Below, in pieces: positions 7,593 through 55,484 of a stretch of 64,000 bases of DNA. This DNA is from Eledone cirrhosa (taxonomy: Eukaryota). The stretch is from contig OZ024749.1 in assembly GCA_964016885.1 (NCBI GenBank), positions 8,742,001 through 8,806,000 of the forward strand, written 5' to 3'. The notes beneath the pieces were generated by a model. The model searched no databases and was not told the DNA's origin. It worked only from the letters and a program-made list of their open reading frames with translations. The first letter of the stretch is position 1. Each line of letters begins with the position of its first letter. The translations under genes and the position numbers were made by a program.

Positions 7593-7866
7593 TAGTTGTT
7601 ACTGCTGTTGTTGTTGTTGTTAATAGCGCTGTTGTAATTATTGTTGTTACAGATGTCAACATTGTTGTTGTTGTTGTTGTCGTTGTTGTCGTTGTTTAAT
7701 TATTTAGTTATAAAATCTGAAGCCATACCAGTGTCCAGTGAAAAAAGACTAAGATTTCTTTAAAGATATCAATAAAAGTTAAACCTTACAACATCTCCAA
7801 AACTTCAGTGACATTTTTATAACATTTCCGTCTGGCTTTTGGTGACGTGTTTACTTATTTATCTAG

Positions 7867-8600
7867 TTAATTGTTGTTGCTGCTGTTGTTGTTGTTGTAG
7901 CTAATGTTGTTGTTGTTGTTGTGGTTGTTGTTGTTGCTGTTGTTGTTGTTGTTGTTGTTGTTGTTGCTGTTGTTGTTGTTGCTGTTGTTGTTGTGGTTGT
8001 TGTTGCTGACATTGTTGCTGTCGTTGCTGTTGTTGTTGTTGTTGTTGTTGTTATCTTGTTTGTATTGTGTTTGTGTTTTGTTTTTGATATTTTTTCTTGT
8101 TTCTTTCGTTGTTGTTCTTTTCAACCTTTTGATATTCAAAACGAAAAATGAAAACAAATACAATATGGCGGTTATCAACAGTATCAACGTCATCGTTATC
8201 GTCATCATTATTATTATCTCCATTATCTCCATTATCTCCATTGTCTCCATTGTCATTGCTATCATCAACATCGTCATCCCCACCATCATCTAGTCATCAT
8301 CATCATCGTCATCCCCATCATCCCTATCATCATCATCATCATTATCATCATCATCGTCGTCATCATTATCACCTCCATTTTCATTATTATAATCGGCGTT
8401 ACTATCATCTACGTCATCACCATCCTCATCATCGTCATTGTCATCATCATCACCATCATTGTCGTTCTCACCCTCAGCGATACCATCATATTCACCACCT
8501 ACGCCTTCACCATCATCATCATCACCATCATCACTACCTCTATCATCATCATGACCATCGCCATTATCACCACCATCAACATCATCATCACCATCAATAA
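7867..8600. repeat. (GTT)n followed by degenerate (CAT)n microsatellites
   Basis: Direct inspection. Confidence 0.9.
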
Positions 8601-8925
8601 CATGTATCCGTTTCCTTGTTTGTTTTTGTTGTAGAATTGTTCAAAACTACTTCTTGTTGCTGTTGTATTTGCCGTTGTTGTTGATGATCATGTCGTGCGG
8701 CCCTTCTTATGATGAGCCACATCCTATGCGGCCCCCTGCTTTAAAGATTTTGCCTATGTCTGATGTAGTATTTGCCTTTTTTTTTTGTTGTGCTTTTGTT
8801 TTTGCCTTTGTTTGTGGTGTTATTGTTTAAGCGGTAGTGTGTGTTTTGAGGGAGATGAGGTTAGAATTTCTAGCAGGTCAATCGACCGTGTAGAGGCTCC
8901 ATCACTGGACCACATTTACATGTTT

Positions 8926-9240
8926 CTTCTTCTTCCCCCACTATTACTGAGAGGGCCGTGGAAGCAGAGTTCCCAAACTCTCCTTTCAGTAGGTCCTGTC
9001 AGAAGCAGCCGCCTCCACCCTATGCGGTTGGATCCCCAAGCGTGACCAGCCAAGCTCATGGATGTTATCCAACCCTCTTGCTGCGGGTTTACCCCCCGGT
9101 GCTCTGGCCGGTTAATTTTGCCCGTAAAATCTGTCCCGCGATTCTTTCCTCAGACATTCTAACCACAAGTCCATAATATCGGAGCTGTGATCTCTGAATT
9201 CAGAGAAGTAGCAGCTCTACCTGGAGTGACTCTCTCATCT
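8926..9240 (-). mobile_element. 3' end of an RTE-clade (Expander-like) LINE, 5'-truncated and degenerate
   Basis: Minus strand: RESLQVELLLL*IQRSQLRYYGLVVRMSEERIAGQILRAKLTGQSTGGKPAARGLDNIHELGWSRLGIQPHRVEAAASDRTY*KESLGTLLPRPSQ*, then a short (GAA)n tail. Resembles the RTE C-terminus (QLRW.GH..RM...R; GRP..RW; LLPPRP). Confidence 0.8.
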
Positions 9241-12200
9241 AGGATCTACAAATCTCTGCAGTGATTCTTTCCTCAGACATTCTAACCACAAGTCCATAAT
9301 ATCGGAGCTGTGATCTCTGAATTCAGAGAAGTAGCAGCTCTACCTGGAGTGACTCTCTCATCTAGGATCTACAAATCTCTGCAGTGATTCTTTCCTCAGA
9401 CATTCTAACCACAAGTCCATAATATCGGAGCTGTGATCTCTGAATTCAGAGAAGTAGCAGCTCTACCTGGAGTGACTCTCTCATCTAGGATCTACAAATC
9501 TCTGCAGTGATTCTTTCCTCAGACATTCTAACCACATGTCCATAATATCGGAGCTGTGATCTCTGAATTCAGAGAAGTAGCAGCTCCACCTGGAGTAACT
9601 CTCTCATCTACGATCTACAAATCTCTGCAGTGATTCTTTCCTCAGACATTCTAACCACATGTCCATAATATCGGAGCTGTGATCTCTGAATTCAGAGAAG
9701 TTCAGCTCCACCTGGAGTGACTCTCTCATCTACGATCTACAAATCTCTGCAGTGATTCTTTCCTCAGACATTCTAACCACATGTCCATAATATCGGAGCT
9801 GTGATCTCTGAATTCAGAGAAGTTCAGCTCCACCTGGAGTGACTCTCTCATCTACGATCTACAAATCTCTGCAGTGATTCTTTCCTCAGACATTCTAACC
9901 ACATGTCCATAATATCGGAGCTGTGATCTCTGAATTCAGAGAAGTTCAGCTCCACCTGGAGTGACTCTCTCATCTACGATCTACAAATCTCAGCAGTGAT
10001 TCTTTCCTCAGACATTCTAACCACATGTCCATAATATCGGAGCTGTGATCTCTGAATTCAGAGAAGTAGCAGCTCTACCTGGAGTGACTCTCTCATCTAG
10101 GATCTACAAATCTCTGCAGTGATTCTTTCCTCAGACATTCTAACCACATGTCCATAATATCGGAGCTGTGATCTCTGAATTCAGAGAAGTAGCAGCTCCA
10201 CCTGGAGTAACTCTCTCATCTACGATCTACAAATCTCTGCAGTGATTCTTTCCTCAGACATTCTAACCACATGTCCATAATATCGGAGCTGTGATCTCTG
10301 AATTCAGAGAAGTAGCAGCTCCACCTGGAGTGACTCTCTCATCTACGATCTACAAATCTCTGCAGTGATTCTTTCTTCAGACATTCTAACCACATGTCCA
10401 TAATATCGGAGCTGTGATCCCTGAATTCAGAGAAGTAGCAGCACCACTTGGAGTGACTCTCTCATCTACGATCTACAAATCTCTGCAGTGATTCTTTCCT
10501 CAGACATTCTAACCACAAGTCCATAATATTGGAGCTGTGATCTCTGAATTCAGAGAAGTAGCAGCTCCACCTGGAGTGACTCTCTCATCTACGATCTACA
10601 AATCTCTGCAGTGATTCTTTCCTCAGACATTCTAACCACATGTCCATAATATCGGAGCTGTGATCTCTGAATTCAGAGAAGTAGCAGCTCCACCTGGAGT
10701 GACTCTCTCATCTACGATCTACAAATCTCTGCAGTGATTCTTTCCTCAGACATTCTAACCACATGTCCATAATATCGGAGCTGTGATCTCTGAATTCAGA
10801 GAAGTTCAGCTCCACCTGGAGTGACTCTCTCATCTACGATCTACAAATCTCTGCAGTGATTCTTTCCTCAGACATTCTAACCACATGTCCATAATATCGG
10901 AGCTGTGATCTCTGAATTCAGAGAAGTAGCAGCTCTACCTGGAGTGACTCTCTCATCTAGGATCTACAAATCTCTGCAGTGATTCTTTCCTCAGACATTC
11001 TAACCACATGTCCATAATATCGGAGCTGTGATCTCTGAATTCAGAGAAGTAGCAGCTCCACCTGGAGTAACTCTCTCATCTACGATCTACAAATCTCTGC
11101 AGTGATTCTTTCCTCAGACATTCTAACCACATGTCCATAATATCGGAGCTGTGATCTCTGAATTCAGAGAAGTTCAGCTCCACCTGGAGTGACTCTCTCA
11201 TCTACGATCGACAAATCTCTGCAGTGATTCTTTCCTCAGACATTCTAACCACATGTCCATAATATCGGAGCTGTGATCTCTGAATTCAGAGAAGTTCAGC
11301 TCCACCTGGAGTGACTCTCTCATCTACGATCTACAAATCTCTGCAGTGATTCTTTCCTCAGACATTCTAACCACATGTCCATAATATCGGAGCTGTGATC
11401 TCTGAATTCAGAGAAGTTCAGCTCCACCTGGAGTGACTCTCTCATCTACGATCTACAAATCTCTGCAGTGATTCTTTCCTCAGACATTCTAAACACATGT
11501 CCATAATATCGGAGCTGTGATCTCTGAATTCAGAGAAGTTCAGCTCCACCTGGAGTGACTCTCTCATCTACGATCTACAAATCTCTGCAGTGATTCTTTC
11601 CTCAGACATTCTAACCACATGTCCATAATATCGGAGCTGTGATCTCTGAATTCAGAGAAGTAGCAGCTCCACCTGGAGTAACTCTCTCATCTACGATCTA
11701 CAAATCTCTGCAGTGATTCTTTCCTCAGACATTCTAACCACATGTCCATAATATCGGAGCTGTGATCTCTGAATTCAGAGAAGTTCAGCTCCACCTGCAG
11801 TGACTCTCTCATCTACGATCTACAAATCTCTGCAGTGATTCTTTCCTCAGACATTCTAACCACATGTCCATAATATCGGAGCTGTGATCTCTGAATTCAG
11901 AGAAGTTCAGCTCCACCTGGAGTGACTCTCTCATCTACGATCTACAAATCTCTGCAGTGATTCTTTCCTCAGACATTCTAACCACATGTCCATAATATCG
12001 GAGCTGTGATCTCTGAATTCAGAGAAGTTCAGCTCCACCTGGAGTGACTCTCTCATCTACGATCTACAAATCTCTGCAGTGATTCTTTCCTCAGACATTC
12101 TAACCACATGTCCATAATATCGGAGCTGTGATCTCTGAATTCAGAGAAGTTCAGCTCCACCTGGAGTGACTCTCTCATCTACGATCTACAAATCTCTGCA

Positions 12201-15200
12201 GTGATTCTCTCCTCAGACATTCGAACCACATGTCCATAATATCGGAGCTGTGATCTCTGAATTCAGAGAAGTAGCAGCTCCACCTGGAGTGACTCTCTCA
12301 TCTACGATCTACAAATCTCTGCAGTGATTCTTTCCTCAGACATTCTAAACACATGTCCATAATATCGGAGCTGTGATCTCTGAATTCAGAGAAGTAGCAG
12401 CTCCACCTGGAGTGACTCTCTCATCTACGATCTACAAATCTCTGCAGTGATTCTTTCCTCAGACATTCTAACCACATGTCCATAATATCGGAGCTGTGAT
12501 CCCTGAATTCAGAGAAGTAGCAGCTCTACCTGGAGTGACTCTCTCATCTACGATCTACAAATCTCTGCAGTGATTCTTTCCTCAGACATTCTAACCACAT
12601 GTCCATAATATCGGAGCTGTGATCTCTGAATTCAGAGAAGTAGCAGCTCCACCTGGAGTGACTCTCTCATCTACGATCTACAAATCTCTGCAGTGATTCT
12701 TTCCTCAGACATTCTAACCACATGTCCATAATATCGGAGCTGTGATCTCTGAATTCAGAGAAGTTCAGCTCCACCTGGAGTGACTCTCTCATCTACGATC
12801 TACAAATCTCTGCAGTGATTCTTTCCTCAGACATTCTAACCACATGTCCATAATATCGGAGCTGTGATCTCTGAATTCAGAGAAGTTCAGCTCCACCTGG
12901 AGTGACTCTCTCATCTACGATCTACAAATCTCTGCAGTGATTCTTTCCTCAGACATTCTAACCACATGTCCATAATATCGGAGCTGTGATCTCTGAATTC
13001 AGAGAAGTTCAGCTCCACCTGGAGTGACTCTCTCATCTACGATCTACAAATCTCTGCAGTGATTCTTTCCTCAGACATTCTAACCACATGTCCATAATAT
13101 CGGAGCTGTGATCTCTGAATTCAGAGAAGTTCAGCTCCACCTGGAGTGACTCTCTCATCTACGATCTACAAATCTCTGCAGTGATTCTTTCCTCAGACAT
13201 TCTAAACACATGTCCATAATATCGGAGCTGTGATCTCTGAATTCAGAGAAGTTCAGCTCCACCTGGAGTGACTCTCTCATCTACGATCTACAAATCTCTG
13301 CAGTGATTCTTTCCTCAGACATTCTAACCACATGTCCATAATATCGGAGCTGTGATCTCTGAATTCAGAGAAGTAGCAGCTCCACCTGGAGTAACTCTCT
13401 CATCTACGATCTACAAATCTCTGCAGTGATTCTTTCCTCAGACATTCTAACCACATGTCCATAATATCGGAGCTGTGATCTCTGAATTCAGAGAAGTTCA
13501 GCTCCACCTGGAGTGACTCTCTCATCTTCGATCTACAAATCTCTGCAGTGATTCTTTCCTCAGACATTCTAACCACATGTCCATAATATCGGAGCTGTGA
13601 TCTCTGAATTCAGAGAAGTTCAGCTCCACCTGGAGTGACGCTCTCATCTACGATCTACAAATCTCTGCAGTGATTCTTTCCTCAGACATTCTAACCACAT
13701 GTCCATAATATCGGAGCTGTGATCTCTGAATTCAGAGAAGTAGCAGCTCCACCTGGAGTGACTCTCTCATCTACGATCTACAAATCTCTGCAGTGATTCT
13801 TTCCTCAGACATTCTAACCACATGTCCATAATATCGGAGCTGTGATCTCTGAATTCAGAGAAGTAGCAGCTCCACCTGGAGTGACTCTCTCATCTACGAT
13901 CTACAAATCTCTGCAGTGATTCTTTCCTCAGACATTCTAACCACATGTCCATAATATCGGAGCTGTGATCCCTGAATTCAGAGAAGTAGCAGCTCTACCT
14001 GGAGTGACTCTCTCATCTACGATCTACAAATCTCTGCAGTGATTCTTTCCTCAGACATTCTAACCACATGTCCATAATATCGGAACTGTGATCTCTGAAT
14101 TCAGAGAAGTAGCAGCTCCACCTGGAGTGACTCTCTCATCTACGATCTACAAATCTCTGCAGTGATTCTTTCCTCAGACATTCTAACCACATGTCCATAA
14201 TATCGGAGCTGTGATCTCTGAATTCAGAGAAGTTCAGCTCCACCTGGAGTGACTCTCTCATCTACGATCTACAAATCTCTGCAGTGATTCTTTCCTCAGA
14301 CATTCTAACCACATGTCCATAATATCGGAGCTGTGATCTCTGAATTCAGAGAAGTTCAGCTCCACCTGGAGTGACTCTCTCATCTACGATCTACAAATCT
14401 CTGCAGTGATTCTTTCCTCAGACATTCTAACCACATGTCCATAATATCGGAGCTGTGATCTCTGAATTCAGAGAAGTTCAGCTCCACCTGGAGTGACTCT
14501 CTCATCTACGATCTACAAATCTCTGCAGTGATTCTTTCCTCAGACATTCTAACCACATGTCCATAATATCGGAGCTGTGATCTCTGAATTCAGAGAAGTT
14601 CAGCTCCACCTGGAGTGACTCTCTCATCTACGATCTACAAATCTCTGCAGTGATTCTTTCCTCAGACATTCTAACCACATGTCCATAATATCGGAGCTGT
14701 GATCTCTGAATTCAGAGAAGTTCAGCTCCACCTGGAGTGACTCTCTCATCTACGATCTACAAATCTCTGCAGTGATTCTTTCCTCAGACATTCTAACCAC
14801 ATGTCCATAATATCGGAGCTGTGATCTCTGAATTCAAAGAAGTTCAGCTCCACCTGGAGTGACTCTCTCATCTACGATCTACAAATCTCTGCAGTGATTC
14901 TTTCCTCAGACATTCTAACCACATGTCCATAATATCGGAGCTGTGATCTCTGAATTCAGAGAAGTAGCAGCTCCACCTGGAGTGACTCTCTCATCTACGA
15001 TCTACAAATCTCTGCAGTGATTCTTTCCTCAGACATTCTAACCACATGTCCATAATATCGGAGCTGTGATCTCTGAATTCAGAGAAGTAGCAGCTCCACC
15101 TGGAGTGACTCTCTCATCTACGATCTACAAATCTCTGCAGTGATTCTTTCTTCAGACATTCTAACCACATGTTCATAATATCGGAGCTGTGATCCCTGAA

Positions 15201-15786
15201 TTCAGAGAAGTAGCAGCACCACTTGGAGTGACTCTCTCATCTACGATCTACAAATCTCTGCAGTGATTCTTTCCTCAGACATTCTAACCACAAGTCCATA
15301 ATATCGGAGCTGTGATCTCTGAATTCAGAGAAGTAGCAGCTCCACCTGGAGTGACTCTCTCATCTACGATCTACAAATCTCTGCAGTGATTCTTTCCTCA
15401 GACATTCTAACCACATGTCCATAATATCGGAGCTGTGATCCCTGAATTCAGAGAAGTAGCAGCTCTACCTGGAGTGACTCTCTCATCTACGATCTACAAA
15501 TCTCTGCAGTGATTCTTTCCTCAGACATTCTAACCACATGTCCATAATATCGGAGCTGTGATCTCTGAATTCAGAGAAGTAGCAGCTCCACCTGGAGTGA
15601 CTCTCTCATCTACGATCTACAAATCTCTGCAGTGATTCTTTCCTCAGACATTCTAACCACATGTCCATAATATCGGAGCTGTGATCTCTGAATTCAGAGA
15701 AGTTCAGCTCCACCTGGAGTGACTCTCTCATCTACGATCTACAAATCTCTGCAGTGATTCTTTCCTCAGACATTCTAACCACATGT
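9140..15786. repeat. Satellite array of ~54 x 122/123-bp monomers derived from the RTE LINE
   Basis: Unit gattctttcctcagacattctaaccacatgtccataatatcggagctgtgatctctgaattcagagaagt(ag/t)cagctccacctggagtgactctctcatctacgatctacaaatctctgcagt. Copies are nearly identical. Confidence 0.97.
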
Positions 15787-17127: not shown

Positions 17128-17190
<63 letters not shown>

Positions 17191-17195
<5 letters not shown>

Positions 17196-18095
17196 AATTA
17201 ATATATCTACCGACATATGTATACAGATGCATACCTATGCTAGCAAATATATATGTTTTGTCTTAGTAACTTTGTGGTTCTATGCAGGGGGATGCAGAAC
17301 AATTATATGAAAGACGTAAATAAGAAAGTTATGAAAATTGACTTACTTACTAAAATTTCACTCCAACTAATTAGTATCTGTAAGGGGATAAATATAGTTA
17401 CGTAATAACTATAAAGAAGCCTTACGTCATCAGAGAGTCTATTCTCAGCTAAGCTTCCAGGCAATGCGGGGACACTGGGAACTTATATAAAAATAATTCA
17501 GTGGATGGAAAAAAGCGAGGAGTGAAATTTTAGTAAGTAAGTCAATTTTCATAACTTTCTTATTTACGTCTTTCATATAATTGTTCTGCATCCCCCTGCA
17601 TAGAACCACAAAGTTACTAAGACAAAACATATATATTTGCTAGCATAGGTATGCATCTGTATACATATGTCGGTAGATATATTAATTCTTTATAATTATC
17701 TCCAAATTATTTGTTGAGCAAAATTGCCGAAATTACTACTGTGACTGATAGTAGTGGCTAGGCTCTGTCTTAATAGCGCCCCCACTCCAAGCTGGTTAAC
17801 CTCAGTGTCACGTGATTGATTCTTTTGAATTTGCCACTTGACCAAGAAGGCAGTGAATTTTTCAATGTCTTGGAATCTTGCCCCGCTCGCTTTTTTCCAT
17901 CCACTGAATAATTTTTATATAAGTTCCCAGTGTCCCCGCATTGCCTGGAAGCTTAGCTGAGAATAGACTTCCTGATGACGTAAGGCTTCTCTATAGTTAT
18001 TACGTAACTATATTTATCCCCTTACAGAAACTAATTAGTTGGAGTGAAATTTTAGTAAGTAAGTCAATTTTCATAACTTTCTTATTTACGTCTTT

Positions 18096-18096
<1 letters not shown>
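17191..18096 (+). mobile_element. Non-coding, hammerhead-containing element (retrozyme-like or non-autonomous PLE) with an inverted partial copy, in (TA)n
   Basis: 17191-17364 is the reverse complement of 17519-17692. About 17310-17519 is the reverse complement of 17886-18096. 17519-17574 is directly repeated at 18041-18096. (TA)n lies on both sides. Confidence 0.8.
17967..18045 (+). ncRNA. Type I hammerhead ribozyme motif (mutated inverted copy at 17360-17438)
   Basis: acttc-CTGATGA-c-gtaagg..[tatagtta/taactata]..ccttac-a-GAAA-ctaattag(palindrome)-TT/ggagt. Confidence 0.75.
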
Positions 18097-18162
<66 letters not shown>

Positions 18163-18166
<4 letters not shown>

Positions 18167-20130
18167 ATAAAGATACTAATTATAGTTATGTATATAGTAT
18201 ACTATAAATAACTATAAACAGGAAAGGTCAGTAATTTATTACTACCTTATTACCAGTAAGAGAAATAGCTCAATGTAAGAACATCAGGTGTTTTACAGAG
18301 CAGCAATATAAAATACACAAGTATCAAAGTTATGTTCAAATCATTTAATCGCTGTTTCTTCCAAACTTTAGTTTGGAGTCATCGGAGCATTATCAATGTT
18401 TGTACATATAATTAACCTCCTATTCAACTGAAGAATCATATAGATACATATATATTGATGTTGTGAACAACAGTTTAGTATATACAGGGTGTAATGGATG
18501 CGACATATATTATACGAGAACTGTACAATAACTCAAATTAAGCTTAAAATTAAAATTAAAATTAAAATTAAAATTAAAAGCACAGAGTGGAATATATGCG
18601 ATAGATAATACAAGAGAATAGTCTAATAATTAAAGAGGCATTGAGGAAGCGTGTAGAGATTGTACAAGCGTTAGTCATATATATGGGAAGGAAACAGGCA
18701 AATGTATTAGGCATATATGAGTACTGTATGGCAAAGTATTACATAAAATACAAGCACTTTAAGCGAATATGTTAGTGTATTATGCAGGATGTAATGCGAG
18801 GATAGTTTCTATATAGTTCAAATATGTATGTGTGTAGAATATGAGAGTTACAGATTTCCCATCCATTACATATGTTAAGTTATATTTTAGTTAATGTTTG
18901 TATTGAATGTTTTTAGTTAGTTATAGTAATGGATTGTAACTTGGTCTTATTGTATTCATATTCATAGATTAGAGTTGTTCTACAACGAGATTTTTCAACG
19001 GTTTAATATCCGGAAGTGGATATTGAATTAAGGGGAGCTAATGCGTAAGGGGAGGTAACTAGCTCATTATAATATTAAAATTCTTTGCTCTAATAGACAT
19101 TATATAGTGCTACAATTGAATCCCTTATACAAAATGTTATATATTTATATTTAATTTTAAATATAGTCTACTCGCTCATAATATATTAAATGTTTCATTA
19201 GATTGTTATCTACCCAATATTAGGCAAGATATGGAATAATGTATAGCTGTTTACATGTTAAATTAGATAAATCTCTTATGTTAATAAATTAATCCTTTAT
19301 ATGCAATGTTATTAATGTATACATTTAATTATAAATGTATATATAATTCATTGTCACATATTACATTTAATTTCTATACATATTATATTATATTTCAATT
19401 ACTGTATATATTATAAGTAATCTAAAGTATTTATATTATAAGGTGGTGACTAGATGTTTATTTCTAGAGTATAATGTTAGAGATAAATAGGATTTGTGTA
19501 GAGGAAAGAGAAGATCAAAGAGTGCGATGCTGTGGGGGAAGAAAAGGCTTAGAGGTGAAGTGTCAATGGTGGTGATGAATTCAAATCTGACATTGTTATA
19601 TACTAGCGGCTAGGTTTAAAGCTATCGAATGAGTGTCGGGAGTGGTGTTGGCACGAGGAAAATATCTCTGACATTTTATTTAGGAGGTTTAGTTTCGAAA
19701 AGATTATAGTATGGGTCTCTAGAAGACAGAGGTTACACAATTTATTCGGTGGTTTATACGATGCAGCCCTACCTACTACTTCCCATTGAAGTGTATGTGT
19801 TCTATTCCTAGTTTTAAGAGAATGTATGTAGCTAGATAGTGAAGTGGAGTTGGCTAGATTGTGTTTTTTGAAAGAGTGGAGGTGCGAGTTGTATCTCGTC
19901 TTGAAGCAGTTCGAAGTAGAGCCAATATATGTTTTAGAAGAGTTTGTGTTGACCGTGCAGAAGTAAATGATGTCTTTGATTAAGCAATTATTACTTAATG
20001 GGCAAGTTCTATTTGATCTACAGTTACATTTATTTTGGATGTTATCTTGCCGGTTATTATGTTGTGTAGAAGTCTGGTTGTTATGGATAGCATTAGGTTA
20101 ATGGTGGTTGTCGTTCCTGAAACCGGTACA
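18163..20130 (-). mobile_element. 5'-truncated Penelope-like element (second family), ending at (TA)n
   Basis: GIY-YIG remnant at 19603-20097, a long AT-rich 3' region, and a hammerhead remnant at 18351-18388. The terminus recurs at about 35190-35530. Confidence 0.8.
19603..20097 (-). pseudogene. GIY-YIG endonuclease domain of a PLE (absent from the ORF track)
   Basis: KCNCRSNRTCPLSNNCLIKDIIYFCTV...KTYIGSTSNCFKTRYNSHLHSF...STSLSSYIHSLK...LQWEVVGRAASY...CNLCLLETHTI..LL, frameshift, NKMSEIFSSCQH. Confidence 0.88.
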
Positions 20131-20232
20131 ATTAAATCGGAAATTCCTATTTTATAAATAAATGTTTTGATTTTATTCTGAGAAAAAATCCCTTTAGCAT
20201 TTTCTACTGTTTTCTTTTGTTTTCTTTTTTAC

Positions 20233-20354: not shown

Positions 20355-20977
<623 letters not shown>

Positions 20978-35148: not shown

Positions 35149-35370
35149 GTTAATTTATATATAATAATTAATATAATATATACTAATATTAAGAATACTA
35201 TTTATAGCTATGTATATTTTAAACTATAAACAACTATAAACAGGGCAGGTCAGTAATTTATTACTACCTTATTACCAGTAAGAGAAATAGCTCAATGTAA
35301 GAACATCAGTTGTTTTACAGAGCAGTAATATTGAATTCACAAATCCAAGCTATGTTCAAAACATTTATCC

Positions 35371-35415
35371 GCTGACAATTGTTTCTTCCAAACCTAGGCT
35401 TGGAGTCCTCGGAGC
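35371..35415 (-). ncRNA. Minimal hammerhead motif with CCGAGGA core variant, in a PLE terminus (about 35190-35530)
   Basis: gct-CCGAGGA-c-tccaagc(ctag)gtttgga-a-GAAA-caattg-TC/agc. Confidence 0.65.
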
Positions 35416-35585
35416 ATTTTTAATGATTGTACATATATAATTTACCTCCTACTCTACGTAAGAGACATACAGATACATATATATATATATTGATGTGCAA
35501 TGTGGAGTTGATGCGACATATATTATATTATATTATATACTATGTATAAACAGATATTATATAGTTTTTATTTTACTATCTTTAT

Positions 35586-52495: not shown

Positions 52496-55484
52496 GTTCT
52501 TTGAGTTTCAGTCATTGATGTTATTTAACTGGAAAGTTTGTTGAAATGAATATCAAGCCACTACTTGCAGCCTCAGCTATTCAAGATATATCGGGGGGGT
52601 TCTTGCTGTTCCCAGCAAGCATACCTTTTGAAGTGTTCCAAAAAGCGGGGCTGGACTAATCTTCTTTAACCATCCTTGGAAACTCTTTGAGATAGTATCT
52701 AGTGCGCCTATGATAATCGGGAACACTTTGTCTTCATAGCAGTTCCAAATCCTTTTTACATCCCACTTTAAGTCCTGGTATCGGTTAATTTTCTCCCTCT
52801 CCTTCTCTTGCACTCTCGTGTCAAATGGGCATGCTACATCTACAATCAGGCACGATCTTTTTTCCTTGTCCAAAACCACCAGGTCAGGTCTATTGTGTTC
52901 CAGTTTCTTGTCCGTCTGTATCCTAAAATCCCATAACACCTTCTCCTGATCGTTTTCTATCACCGACTCTGGCTTATGCTCATACCCCTTCTAGGAATGT
53001 GGTAAATTGTTTACTTTGCGTAGGTGCCAGTGGATCACCCTGCCCATCACATCATGTCTCCAGCCTTTATAGTGAGTCTGGGCTAGGTGTTTATACTCGG
53101 ATACAATGTGAGCCACAGTCTCCTCTCTCTCTCCACAGATCCTACACAGTGGGCTAGCCTCCTTCTTGTAAATATGGTGTTTCACCCACTTCGTTTTGAG
53201 GGCCTGCTCTTGCGCAACCATTAGCATTCCTTCTGTAGCCTTTTTAAGGTCTCCTCTTTTCAACCAGTTCCATGTCTGTGGATCTCTAAATTCAGTTTTC
53301 TCAAAGAAGGTACTATGAAGGTATTTTTCATGAAGGTTGCTCTTCCTCCTTGTAGTTATTTCCTCCTTGGACATCCCTTGGTTTATTGTCCTCTCCTTCA
53401 GTACAATTCTGAGCATTGGCTCCCTACTGTCAGTCACGTATTTGTGTAGGTTGTTTTTCTCCATCTGAACACAGTCCTCTATGCTGATAAGACATCTTCC
53501 AGCTTCAGATCTCCTTAAGTAGAGTCTATCGACATCACTCCTCTTGTGGAACATGTTGTAGATAGTCAATAGCTTCCTAGTCTTCCTATCCATTTCTTTT
53601 TGTTCAGCAACATTCCATTTCAGAATTCCCGCACTGTACCTAATAATAGACACAGCTCGGGTATTCACTGCACTTATGACATTCCTACTGTTCAGATGTA
53701 ATTTTAATACGCTCCTTACTCTCCTAATGTACTCAGATCTTATCATTTCCTTCATTTTTTTGTTCTTGATGTTATCTGCCTCCAGAACACCTAAATATTT
53801 GTATCCTTCTTCAGTGTCAATTGCCTTTATCATCTCACCTGTTGGTACCTGGATTCCGTTGCTTCTGCTCAATTTACCCCTCTTCATCACTAGGACTCCA
53901 CACTTACTAATACCAAATTGCATACATATATCATTGCTGAAAATACGGACAGTGTCAACAAGCACATCCAACTCCTTCTCCCTCTTCCCGAAGAGCTTAA
54001 GATCGTCCATGAAGAGGAGGTGATTGAGGGTAAGCTCTCCTTTGCCCAACTTGTATCCTGCTCTCACTTTCGCAGTATAATGGTCAGGGGCATCAGGGCA
54101 AGAACAAACAACAGAGGGGACAAACTATCTTCCTGGAAGATACCTCTCTTGATCTTCACGCTTCCCAAGGATTCTCTACCCGATGTTAACTCTGTTTTCC
54201 AGGACTTCATACTTTTGTTCAACAATTGTCTGATGTTATCTGCCACCTTGAAGATCTCTAGGCTTTTGGTTATCCAAGAATGTGGTACCATGTCGAATGC
54301 CTTTTTGTAGTCTATCCATCCCATGGAAAGACCAGTGTGTCACCTCTTACAATTCCTCATTACCATCTTATCAATAAGTAACTGGTCCTTTGTACCACGG
54401 GACTTCTTTCGGCATCCTTTCTGTTCGTCCGGTAACAAGTTGTTTATGTGGAGGTGATGGTAGATTTCCTCAGACACAATGCTTGTTAACAGTTTCCATA
54501 TTACGGACAGACATGTGATAGGTCTATAGTTGGTAACATCATTACCCTTGATTCGGTCTTTCATTACCAAAACTGTTGTACCTTTTGTCAACCACACTGG
54601 TACCTCACCTGACATCAAGCAGTCACTGAACATGGTTGTCAGTTTCGGGTGGAGGCGTGTTATATTTTAATCCAATTCCCCCTGCACACCATCTGGGCCT
54701 GGTGATTTCCAGTTGGTTAGTTTTTTGGCCTGCCCTTTAAGAGTTTCAACTGTGATACTCAAATCAGTTTGTTGGTGTACTTGTTCACTAATCTCCTTTT
54801 GTACTGTCTCAGTCCACACTGCCTGATCATTATGTTCAACATCCTGCTCCCATATTCCTCTCCAGAATGTCTTAGTCTGTTCCGCCTCAGGGATCAAGTC
54901 GTTGCCTCTTTCTTTCCCTTCAAGCTGTCCAAACAACATCTTCTGGCTGTTGTTAAACATGCGGTTCTGTCTATACTGACTGACTCTGCTGTCATATCGC
55001 CTAATATTTCCACGCTTTGCTACAATGCGTTGCTTCAGTTCCTCTATGACAATATTTAGCTTTTTCCTCCTAGTTTTGTACTTTATTTCCAATCTATTTT
55101 TAGTGTCTATGTTTTGTAGTGTCCCATTCAGTAGGGACTCAAGCTTTCCAATGTCATTTCTCATTTCCCTGATTTGACCATTCAGTCGTTTCTTCCACCA
55201 AGGTTCGTCTTTCTTGTTTGTTGTTTCCTCTCGTTTTTATGCCAAGTAATTTCCTCACCGCATTTGCTGTTGCTTTAAGGATATTGTTGCATTGGTGAAG
55301 GTTCCTCGTCTCAAGGTATGGGATGACTTTGTTTACCTTAGCCGTTGTTTCTTTTAACTTTTTCCTGTCTACAAATCTTAGGTTCAGATGTTTCCCACTA
55401 TCATTGTTCATTTCATCTACCACTAAGTTTAGGATATCAACCAAATCTTGTCCTAGCCCGTCAGCATTCATTTCCTCAATGGCC

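Follow-up and report, generated by a model that had tools for sequence, protein, structure and literature searches.

A non-coding 522-nt hammerhead repeat of Eledone cirrhosa, probably copied from RNA into TA runs by a Penelope-type enzyme

The insertion considered here lies in a 64,000-nt stretch of the Eledone cirrhosa genome (the window; all positions below are counted from its first nucleotide). It is quite probably one copy of a high-copy, non-coding repeat that carries a predicted self-cleaving hammerhead ribozyme (HHR) and is likely copied from RNA into TA runs by a Neptune-like Penelope RT-endonuclease. By comparison with described elements, the 522-nt unit would be classed as a non-LTR retrozyme-like, non-autonomous PLE, of a kind that is already known but with an informative insertion anatomy. 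This anatomy, the copy number, the covariation within the HHR and the haplotypes shared between the arms of an insertion can be read directly from the genome.

The mobilisation of retrozymes by PLEs has so far been argued from co-occurrence and pLTR homology (bioRxiv 10.64898/2026.07.22.740005; PMC7229834), the origin of PLE inverted arms and tails has been termed undefined (PMC8557442), and the role of PLE hammerheads in vivo has been termed a mystery (PMC7761336). One short RNA makes these three points testable: a PLE end signature is present in each insertion, the two 3' sites are split one per arm, both here and in a coding family, and some insertions have both arms ending at the predicted cut.

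Structure of the insertion in the window

Read directly on the plus strand, positions 17519-18040 form a non-coding unit with an HHR at its end. A repeat scan of the window gives a 61-nt direct repeat, with copies at 17519 and 18041 that lie 522 nt apart, and two inverted matches, 17304-17519 with 17886-18101 (97%) and 17184-17364 with 17519-17699 (99%). It follows from the two inverted matches that the minus arm consists of unit 368-522 followed by 1-176 and crosses the cut site, which confirms the initial annotation of an inverted piece that reads through the HHR into the next ~170 nt. The plus arm (17519-18097) contains one full unit and ~57 nt of another, the minus arm extends from 17519 to 17193, and (TA)32-33 runs directly adjoin both ends of the insertion (Table 1). 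Because the G at 17519 is common to both arms and may belong to either, the start of the unit is known to within 1 nt. The claim that the unit is bounded exactly by cut sites holds, within this 1 nt, for the window copy, but not for the family, in which ~88% of arms read through the site. On the circularised unit (GC 36%) no ATG frame exceeds 50 aa, in agreement with the earlier statement that there is no meaningful ORF. In three sequencing runs of one sample the 522-nt family is present as short contigs, which neither confirm nor question the joint of the window copy.

Table 1. Features of the insertion and of its immediate surroundings in the window
Feature	Positions	Strand	Source
Left target run, (TA)32	17129..17192	.	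repeat scan
Inverted arm: unit 368-522, then 1-~176, 3' site S2 on (TA)n	17193..17519	-	repeat scan
Second HHR copy, GAUA instead of GAAA, putatively inactive; arm continues across 17365/17364	17360..17438	-	
Full non-coding unit, cut site to cut site, 522 nt	17519..18040	+	
S1, first fixed 3' end; putative RT start, CAUAUA	17575..17579	+	
115-nt "tail" from S1 to S2; predicted long hairpin ~17631-17683; S2 ~17690-17694	17580..17694	+	
Stretch complementary to both sides of the cut; putative HHR lock or ligation splint	17783..17798	+	
PLE-type type I hammerhead, predicted cut GUU/G at 18040/18041	17967..18045	+	
Partial second unit, 1-~57, stopping at S1	18041..18097	+	
Right target run, (TA)33	18098..18163	.	
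Adjacent but separate insertion: coding Neptune-like PLE, 3' fragment that ends at its own S2 on this (TA)n	18164..20200	-	

The predicted hammerhead

The HHR of the plus arm has a helix I of ACUUC/GGAGU, the sequence CUGAUGA, a helix II of GUAAGG/CCUUAC, GAAA and the cut triplet GUU followed by G, and its stem III is palindromic (CUAAUUAG). GAUA replaces GAAA in the HHR of the inverted arm, which leaves the window copy with a single intact HHR. At the gathering and E-value thresholds of Rfam no HHR was matched in the window copy, and the hammerhead fold (-10.5 kcal/mol) lies 4.9 kcal/mol above the minimum-energy fold (-15.4 kcal/mol). The ribozyme is predicted instead from its core motif and from covariation. 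Among 23 HHR sequences, which are chosen subfamily representatives and mutually related, so that covariation counts are not independent events, the core is invariant save for the variable seventh position and one deletion. All 6 pairs of helix II are formed in 23/23, and in 2 of them both partners have changed; loop II contains another helix, in which five columns have two-sided changes. (Two-sided changes in helix I were rejected as covariation; they reflect a register shift from an added pair.) Because helix II is paired throughout and has two-sided changes, the HHR is taken to be under selection in the family.

The minimal HHRs of PLEs (Cervera and de la Pena 2014, PMC4209133), which are expected to act as dimers with low activity, have the same extra base between positions 9 and 10.1, the same G10.1-C11.1 pair, a long helix II, a short helix I and a palindromic stem III. 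The HHR of the 522-nt unit differs from them in an extra A before GAAA, which forms a C.A pair at the base of helix II, in the second covarying helix within loop II, and in its location within a closed non-coding unit. The C.A pair occurs in 359 of the 379 HHR matches of the unit (duplicates included) and in 7 of 10 matches of a coding family described below; it is not among the commonest types listed for the other 7 HHR types found.

A dispersed family of closed monomers

A similarity search with the unit gave 3,274 candidates in the 3.0-Gb genome (40 scored), and an exact pattern for the HHR core gave 9,864 matches genome-wide, the first 30 of which all match the unit. By these core matches the family has ~10,000 copies, and at 65 clusters per 100 listed matches (a hand count) it marks at least ~6,400 loci of the Eledone cirrhosa genome. 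The HHR core bounds 82 distinct closed monomers of 506-571 nt, the read-through junctions of the closest subfamily give 1,994 exact matches, the closed unit is kept in subfamilies down to 70% identity, and tandem arrays of up to 5 units are seen. The small, non-coding, multi-copy and tandem family that had been proposed from the window alone is thus borne out. No earlier description of it was found in the literature, in a search that lay mostly outside subscription papers, Repbase and Dfam. Pattern scans of metagenome contigs and of viral contigs gave 0 and 0 matches, and a repeat paper on Octopus vulgaris mentions no hammerhead or ribozyme in its main text and has neither a hammerhead nor a core-motif match in one supplement.

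Two fixed 3' ends and opposed arms

To define the ends of the family, chromosome C1 was sampled twice by short patterns just 3' of the cut, and the first 100 listed places of each sample gave 60 and 61 insertions. In 188 of their 209 arms the 3' end lies at one of two sites that are 115 nt apart, S1 (unit ~57-61) or S2 (~172-176), and it is followed by TA in 162/188 and by a dinucleotide run in 186/188. These two fixed 3' sites are the main defining ends of the family. Target-site duplications are unreadable there because the ends lie within (TA)n. Head-to-head insertions account for 80 of the 121; among the classifiable pairs, S1 is combined with S2 in 62/63 and with a second S1 in 1, S2 with S2 in 0, and a further 17 have one unclassified arm. 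The head-to-head joints mostly overlap by 1-5 nt, and 77/209 arms span at least one full unit, back to its own start. Since one insertion (locus L042), whose units have lost the HHR entirely, still has S1 and S2 ends, the ribozyme is not needed for insertion.

The two arms of an insertion resemble each other more than they resemble other copies: subfamily alleles are discordant in 2.7% between the arms of one insertion and in 9.0% between close insertions. Of the private alleles shared inside an insertion, 21 link opposite arms and 9 recur in the same arm, where <1 would be expected.

A PLE insertion is typically a partial tandem that is truncated on its 5' side and carries an inverted arm (PMC8557442), and its tail is present at one end only (PMC8557442; PMC3846280). 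In vitro work on the PLE Poseidon PAc has placed the tail between two internal RT start sites and has shown that the protein nicks and extends both target strands, with two internal starts and with uncut RNA as template (PMC11167929). The 522-nt family exhibits every testable insertion feature of non-autonomous PLEs, and the PLE-type mobilisation into (TA)n that the initial annotation had proposed agrees with its TA-bounded ends and with its S1/S2 pairs, which recur in a coding family.

A coding relative

The insertion next to the window copy has a GIY-YIG frame at 19606-20097, preceded by a cysteine cluster, and an HHR near 18350-18390 in which part of stem III is deleted; its Pfam match to GIY-YIG is sub-threshold (E 0.0026). 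We read it as Neptune-like from the cysteine cluster and the C-terminal endonuclease, following PMC8557442. The coding Neptune-like family, with 60,895 first-look candidates, has a 1.4-kb 3' UTR, a CCGAUGA-type HHR and, in locus L258, a 4,209-nt unit. One copy with a 768-aa ORF has RT-like motifs and a GIY-YIG part; Pfam gave no RT family for this ORF, and a PDB search no match. Among 24 mapped loci of the coding family, S1 is paired with S2 in 10/10 classifiable head-to-head insertions (2 of the 10 by eye) and no insertion uses the same site twice, the remaining loci being single-armed or unclassifiable. The coding-family tail measures 157 nt and that of the unit 115 nt. A weak in-register motif before S1 is common to the unit and to the coding family (64 and 5 of 1,000 shuffles reach it). 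Because they share this motif and the C.A pair, the coding family is a plausible relative of the driver, short of a proven parent. In partner searches over the loci examined, a nucleotide profile gave only a distant 483-nt unit, and a broad HHR pattern gave units only and no coding partner. (Further pLTR-like copies are present near 35171-35449 and 35400 of the window.)

The initial annotation had itself raised the case that the unit is merely the pLTR of a long coding PLE; a truncated end of such an element is a related reading. PLE insertions are commonly partial tandems of just this form (PMC8557442), and most loci were examined with 1.5-2 kb of flank. However, an upstream coding match lies within 2.5 kb of only 5 of the 379 HHR matches, all 5 of them behind a TA run, and in the loci examined there was neither a coding element that bears the 522-nt unit as its pLTR nor a unit whose positions 1-176 run into an ORF. 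The 77 arms that reach back to the start of their own unit, the 82 closed monomers and the persistence of the closed unit at 70% identity also speak against a mere pLTR, which is thus very improbable. The same may be said, a little less strongly, of the proposal that the inverted arm is a self-primed fold-back copy of the first arm instead of a second cDNA from the other target strand. Such fold-back has been proposed for rotifer Penelope elements (PMC3846280); alleles are common to both arms, and some joints lie on palindromes, for example CTAATTAG at loci L022 and L027. Yet the arms mostly end at unrelated unit positions and either may hold sequence that the other lacks, as in the window, where the S1 arm has unit 177-367 and the S2 arm does not, and the alleles shared at L002 are not mirrored but displaced by one unit. 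That the unit is a satellite or MITE-like element of DNA, which recombination has spread and whose HHR-like motif is incidental, is scarcely credible. Mosaic alleles in the tandem units of locus L267 suggest some exchange at the DNA level, and a local, satellite-like expansion of PLE ends has been proposed (bioRxiv 10.64898/2026.07.22.740005). But the copies are dispersed short insertions in (TA)n targets, their anatomy equals that of the coding PLE and their HHR has compensatory changes, and the fixed 3' and variable 5' ends largely refute the satellite reading.

Ends at the predicted cut

If templates were cleaved by the HHR, 5' ends should be found at the cut, and the initial annotation had indeed taken the window copy for a cDNA of a self-cleaved RNA and had proposed a search for copies whose 5' ends pile up at GGAGTG. 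Among arms that reach the cut, 218/246 pass it (L042 excluded). In the two pattern-selected C1 samples, where background termination is 0.0023 per nt, ends at +1/+2 number 2/205 (1.0 expected). Ends at +3..+20 number 28 (9.6 expected), those at -20..-1 number 7 (9.9 expected) and, in one sample, those at -40..-21 number 12 (4.8 expected); both arms end within +1..+27 in 9/79 pairs (2.8 expected).

Genome-wide, a pattern that begins with GGAGTG and is preceded by A or C occurs at 45 places, all of which were read; 22 are true ends, the window copy among them, against a background of 3-4 by our own estimate. In eight insertions, which account for 10 of these 22 ends, both arms terminate at the cut (+1), and several of these insertions have 1-10 added nucleotides; by our own estimate well under one such insertion would be expected by chance. 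Among the top similarity matches, loci L004, L005 and L024 also begin at +1. A control two bases upstream of the cut occurs at 38 places and gave 13 apparent ends among the first 30 read; this control fails to separate the two sites, as about half of its ends may in fact lie at +1, with the TT contributed by the partner arm. (Scripted calls of true ends numbered 16 at the cut site and 14 at the control, of which 5 and 1 were removed by eye.) The pattern preceded by A, C or G, with 631 matches, was discarded as a count of cut-site ends, 28 of the first 30 being a subfamily with an extra G, and three apparent +1 ends in the first C1 sample came from the HHR-deleted locus L042 and were dropped from the end counts.

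We take these counts to mean that most templates were continuous across the predicted cut, whereas a minority physically ended there on the 5' side. The 5' ends do not pile up strongly at GGAGTG, and origin from a self-cleaved RNA holds for a minority of insertions, probably including the window copy, while most arms read through. The eight insertions with both arms stopped at the cut are likely a footprint of cleavage in vivo; for Poseidon PAc no cut-site reads were found. The window copy would be derived most simply from an RNA that had been cut at its 5' end while its downstream HHR remained uncut.

The template and a possible cycle

A cycle of five steps could give rise to such insertions; in it transcription, cleavage, the enzyme and the order of steps are all inferred. 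Tandem copies would be transcribed into multimeric RNA. The HHR would then cut some junctions only; it likely requires dimer formation by pairing of the palindromic stem III, and an internal complementary segment is predicted to lock it. A PLE protein would nick both strands of a (TA)n target and would start one cDNA from S1 and the other from S2 of the same RNA, priming perhaps through 4-5 nt of UAUA pairing with the target. Both cDNAs would extend upstream, mostly across an uncut junction, and would be joined head-to-head by short overlaps, or a single arm would be joined to the flank. On an RNA already cut at its 5' end, the cDNA would run off at the cut.

The family template is rather more probably an uncut or partly cut linear multimer than anything else, although linear copying cannot by itself regenerate multimers, which counts against this best explanation. 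With the same element and enzyme, the usual template could also be a monomer ligated into a circle, from which reverse transcription proceeds in rolling-circle fashion, as in the retrozyme model; this is possible, but we hold it only tentatively. End-to-end template jumps are unlikely. Animal retrozymes yield circles (PMC7229834), and in the present family the read-through of the junction is precise, as its exact matches attest. The best partner of the junction is the opposite segment, unit 264-281, in 20/22 diverse monomers, and it lies at 0.52-0.56 of the unit in 69/82 monomers overall; this partner displaces helix I in 11/13 predicted circles. Circular folds of monomers have z values of -4.4, -1.9, -5.2 and -8.3. 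At L042 (G000:C1:299080800-299081550) the same exact joint of unit position 449 to +1 recurs three times and is present in both arms, which suggests a rolling step. Against a circle, the arms that stop at the cut require a linear 5' end. In addition, the junction helix (93% paired) has one-sided changes in 9/14 pairs and no two-sided ones, because the junction is nearly invariant, and the helix is no more conserved than its right flank (0.87 vs 0.89). Selection on the junction-spanning helix is therefore at most suggested, and the helix would equally account for read-through in linear multimers. No such helix was found when a single copy of the coding family, of a 310-nt unit and of the 483-nt unit was examined.

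Rare alleles bear on both readings. In insertions with at least three overlapping segments (n=75), 273 rare alleles are found in one segment, 28 in all and 36 in some. When locus L270, which is two adjacent insertions, is left out, 25 are present in every unit of their insertion, as a circle would predict, and 27 in some but not all, against ~2 expected from one clonal monomer by our own estimate; the latter could also arise by gene conversion. An earlier, smaller set of insertions had 2 in all and 12 in some. Shared alleles are in register between the arms at L023 and L049 and, as noted, offset at L002, patterns that fit linear multimers of unlike units. Allele sharing is mosaic at L134 and L267, which may reflect conversion; the mosaic of L267, an array of five tandem units, suggests unequal exchange or conversion within the array. 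A more specific and somewhat more speculative form of the circular reading is a ~520-nt viroid-like circle whose HHR is locked by a segment on the opposite side of the circle, evolved into many subfamilies in one genome and integrated by a dimeric Neptune-type RT that primes at S1 and S2 on two strands. If it were true, the joints would record both the cleavage of a PLE HHR in vivo and the origin of inverted ends and tails.

Relation to retrozymes and PLEs

Li, Clavereau and Pollet have argued, from co-occurrence and pLTR homology, that retrozymes are non-autonomous PLE derivatives, and they accept minimal HHRs for retrozymes as well (bioRxiv 10.64898/2026.07.22.740005). Judged by its sequence, the 522-nt unit falls under their broad definition of non-LTR retrozymes, and its 506-571-nt monomers lie inside their range of 51-972 bp. 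Like the animal non-LTR retrozymes of Cervera and de la Pena (2020, PMC7229834), it is a low-GC, non-coding tandem unit with a type I HHR per repeat, it seems to have no LTR, PBS or tRNA part (no tRNA gene was found), and it shares with retrozymes the thousands of copies and the proposed mobilisation by PLEs (PMC7229834; bioRxiv 10.64898/2026.07.22.740005). It would fall outside their narrower description, however, in two respects: retrozymes there measure 170-400 nt, and their type I HHR is canonical, whereas the HHR here is a PLE-type variant with a long helix II. In contrast to animal retrozymes, the present family is dispersed, with mostly 1-2 units per arm. A junction lock, predicted here, is reported by Cervera in plant and some mussel retrozymes but not in most animal ones (PMC7229834). 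Neither fixed RT start sites nor head-to-head arms are described for retrozymes in the available parts of PMC7229834 or of bioRxiv 10.64898/2026.07.22.740005.

With PLEs that have an inverted pLTR and a tail (PMC8557442; PMC3846280; PMC11167929) the family shares partial tandems, an inverted 5' arm and a tail at one end, and with PLEs including Poseidon PAc (PMC11167929) two internal RT starts downstream of the HHR and AT-rich or (TA)n targets. Published PLE tails are 30-40 bp, much shorter than those of the unit and of its coding neighbour, and the 522-nt unit lacks the ORF with RT and GIY-YIG that marks autonomous PLEs. The start sites here carry a UAUA that could pair with the target, whereas those of PAc have no homology to it; each arm here strictly uses one site, whereas PAc in vitro shows no strand difference (PMC11167929). 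Non-autonomous PLEs of Chlamys such as MRC1 (PMC8557442) are likewise non-coding passengers that form pLTRs and head-to-tail multimers. However, those clades have no canonical HHRs and their 3' end generally resembles that of their autonomous family, whereas the partner match here is the weak motif before S1. For the use of one site per arm, the long tail, cut-centred joints and the junction-spanning segment, the same literature search found no prior description.

Other repeats

Further HHR repeats were seen alongside the family. A tandem family with a 310-312-nt period and a CGCG stem III occupies L259:1-1550 and 7800-9000, where it lies head-to-head, and is also found at L084, L194, L008 and L070. 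An HHR tandem unit of 483-484 nt with the stem III CCGAUCGG (L073:400-1140, L041:1800-2330) is distantly similar to the 522-nt unit (nucleotide profile, E 3.6e-4). At locus L148, HHRs with a CUAG stem III are spaced 424 nt apart, and the fetched loci have 32 matches of this type, duplicates included. Elsewhere in the window, a satellite at 9140-15786 consists of 54 copies of a 122-123-nt unit with 98% identity, and the minus strand of 52577-55236 holds broken RT frames of a non-LTR retrotransposon, with weak RVT_1 and zf-RVT matches. An 80-nt inverted repeat (95%) at 20355-20434 and 20838-20917 encloses a microsatellite-rich spacer of 403 nt.
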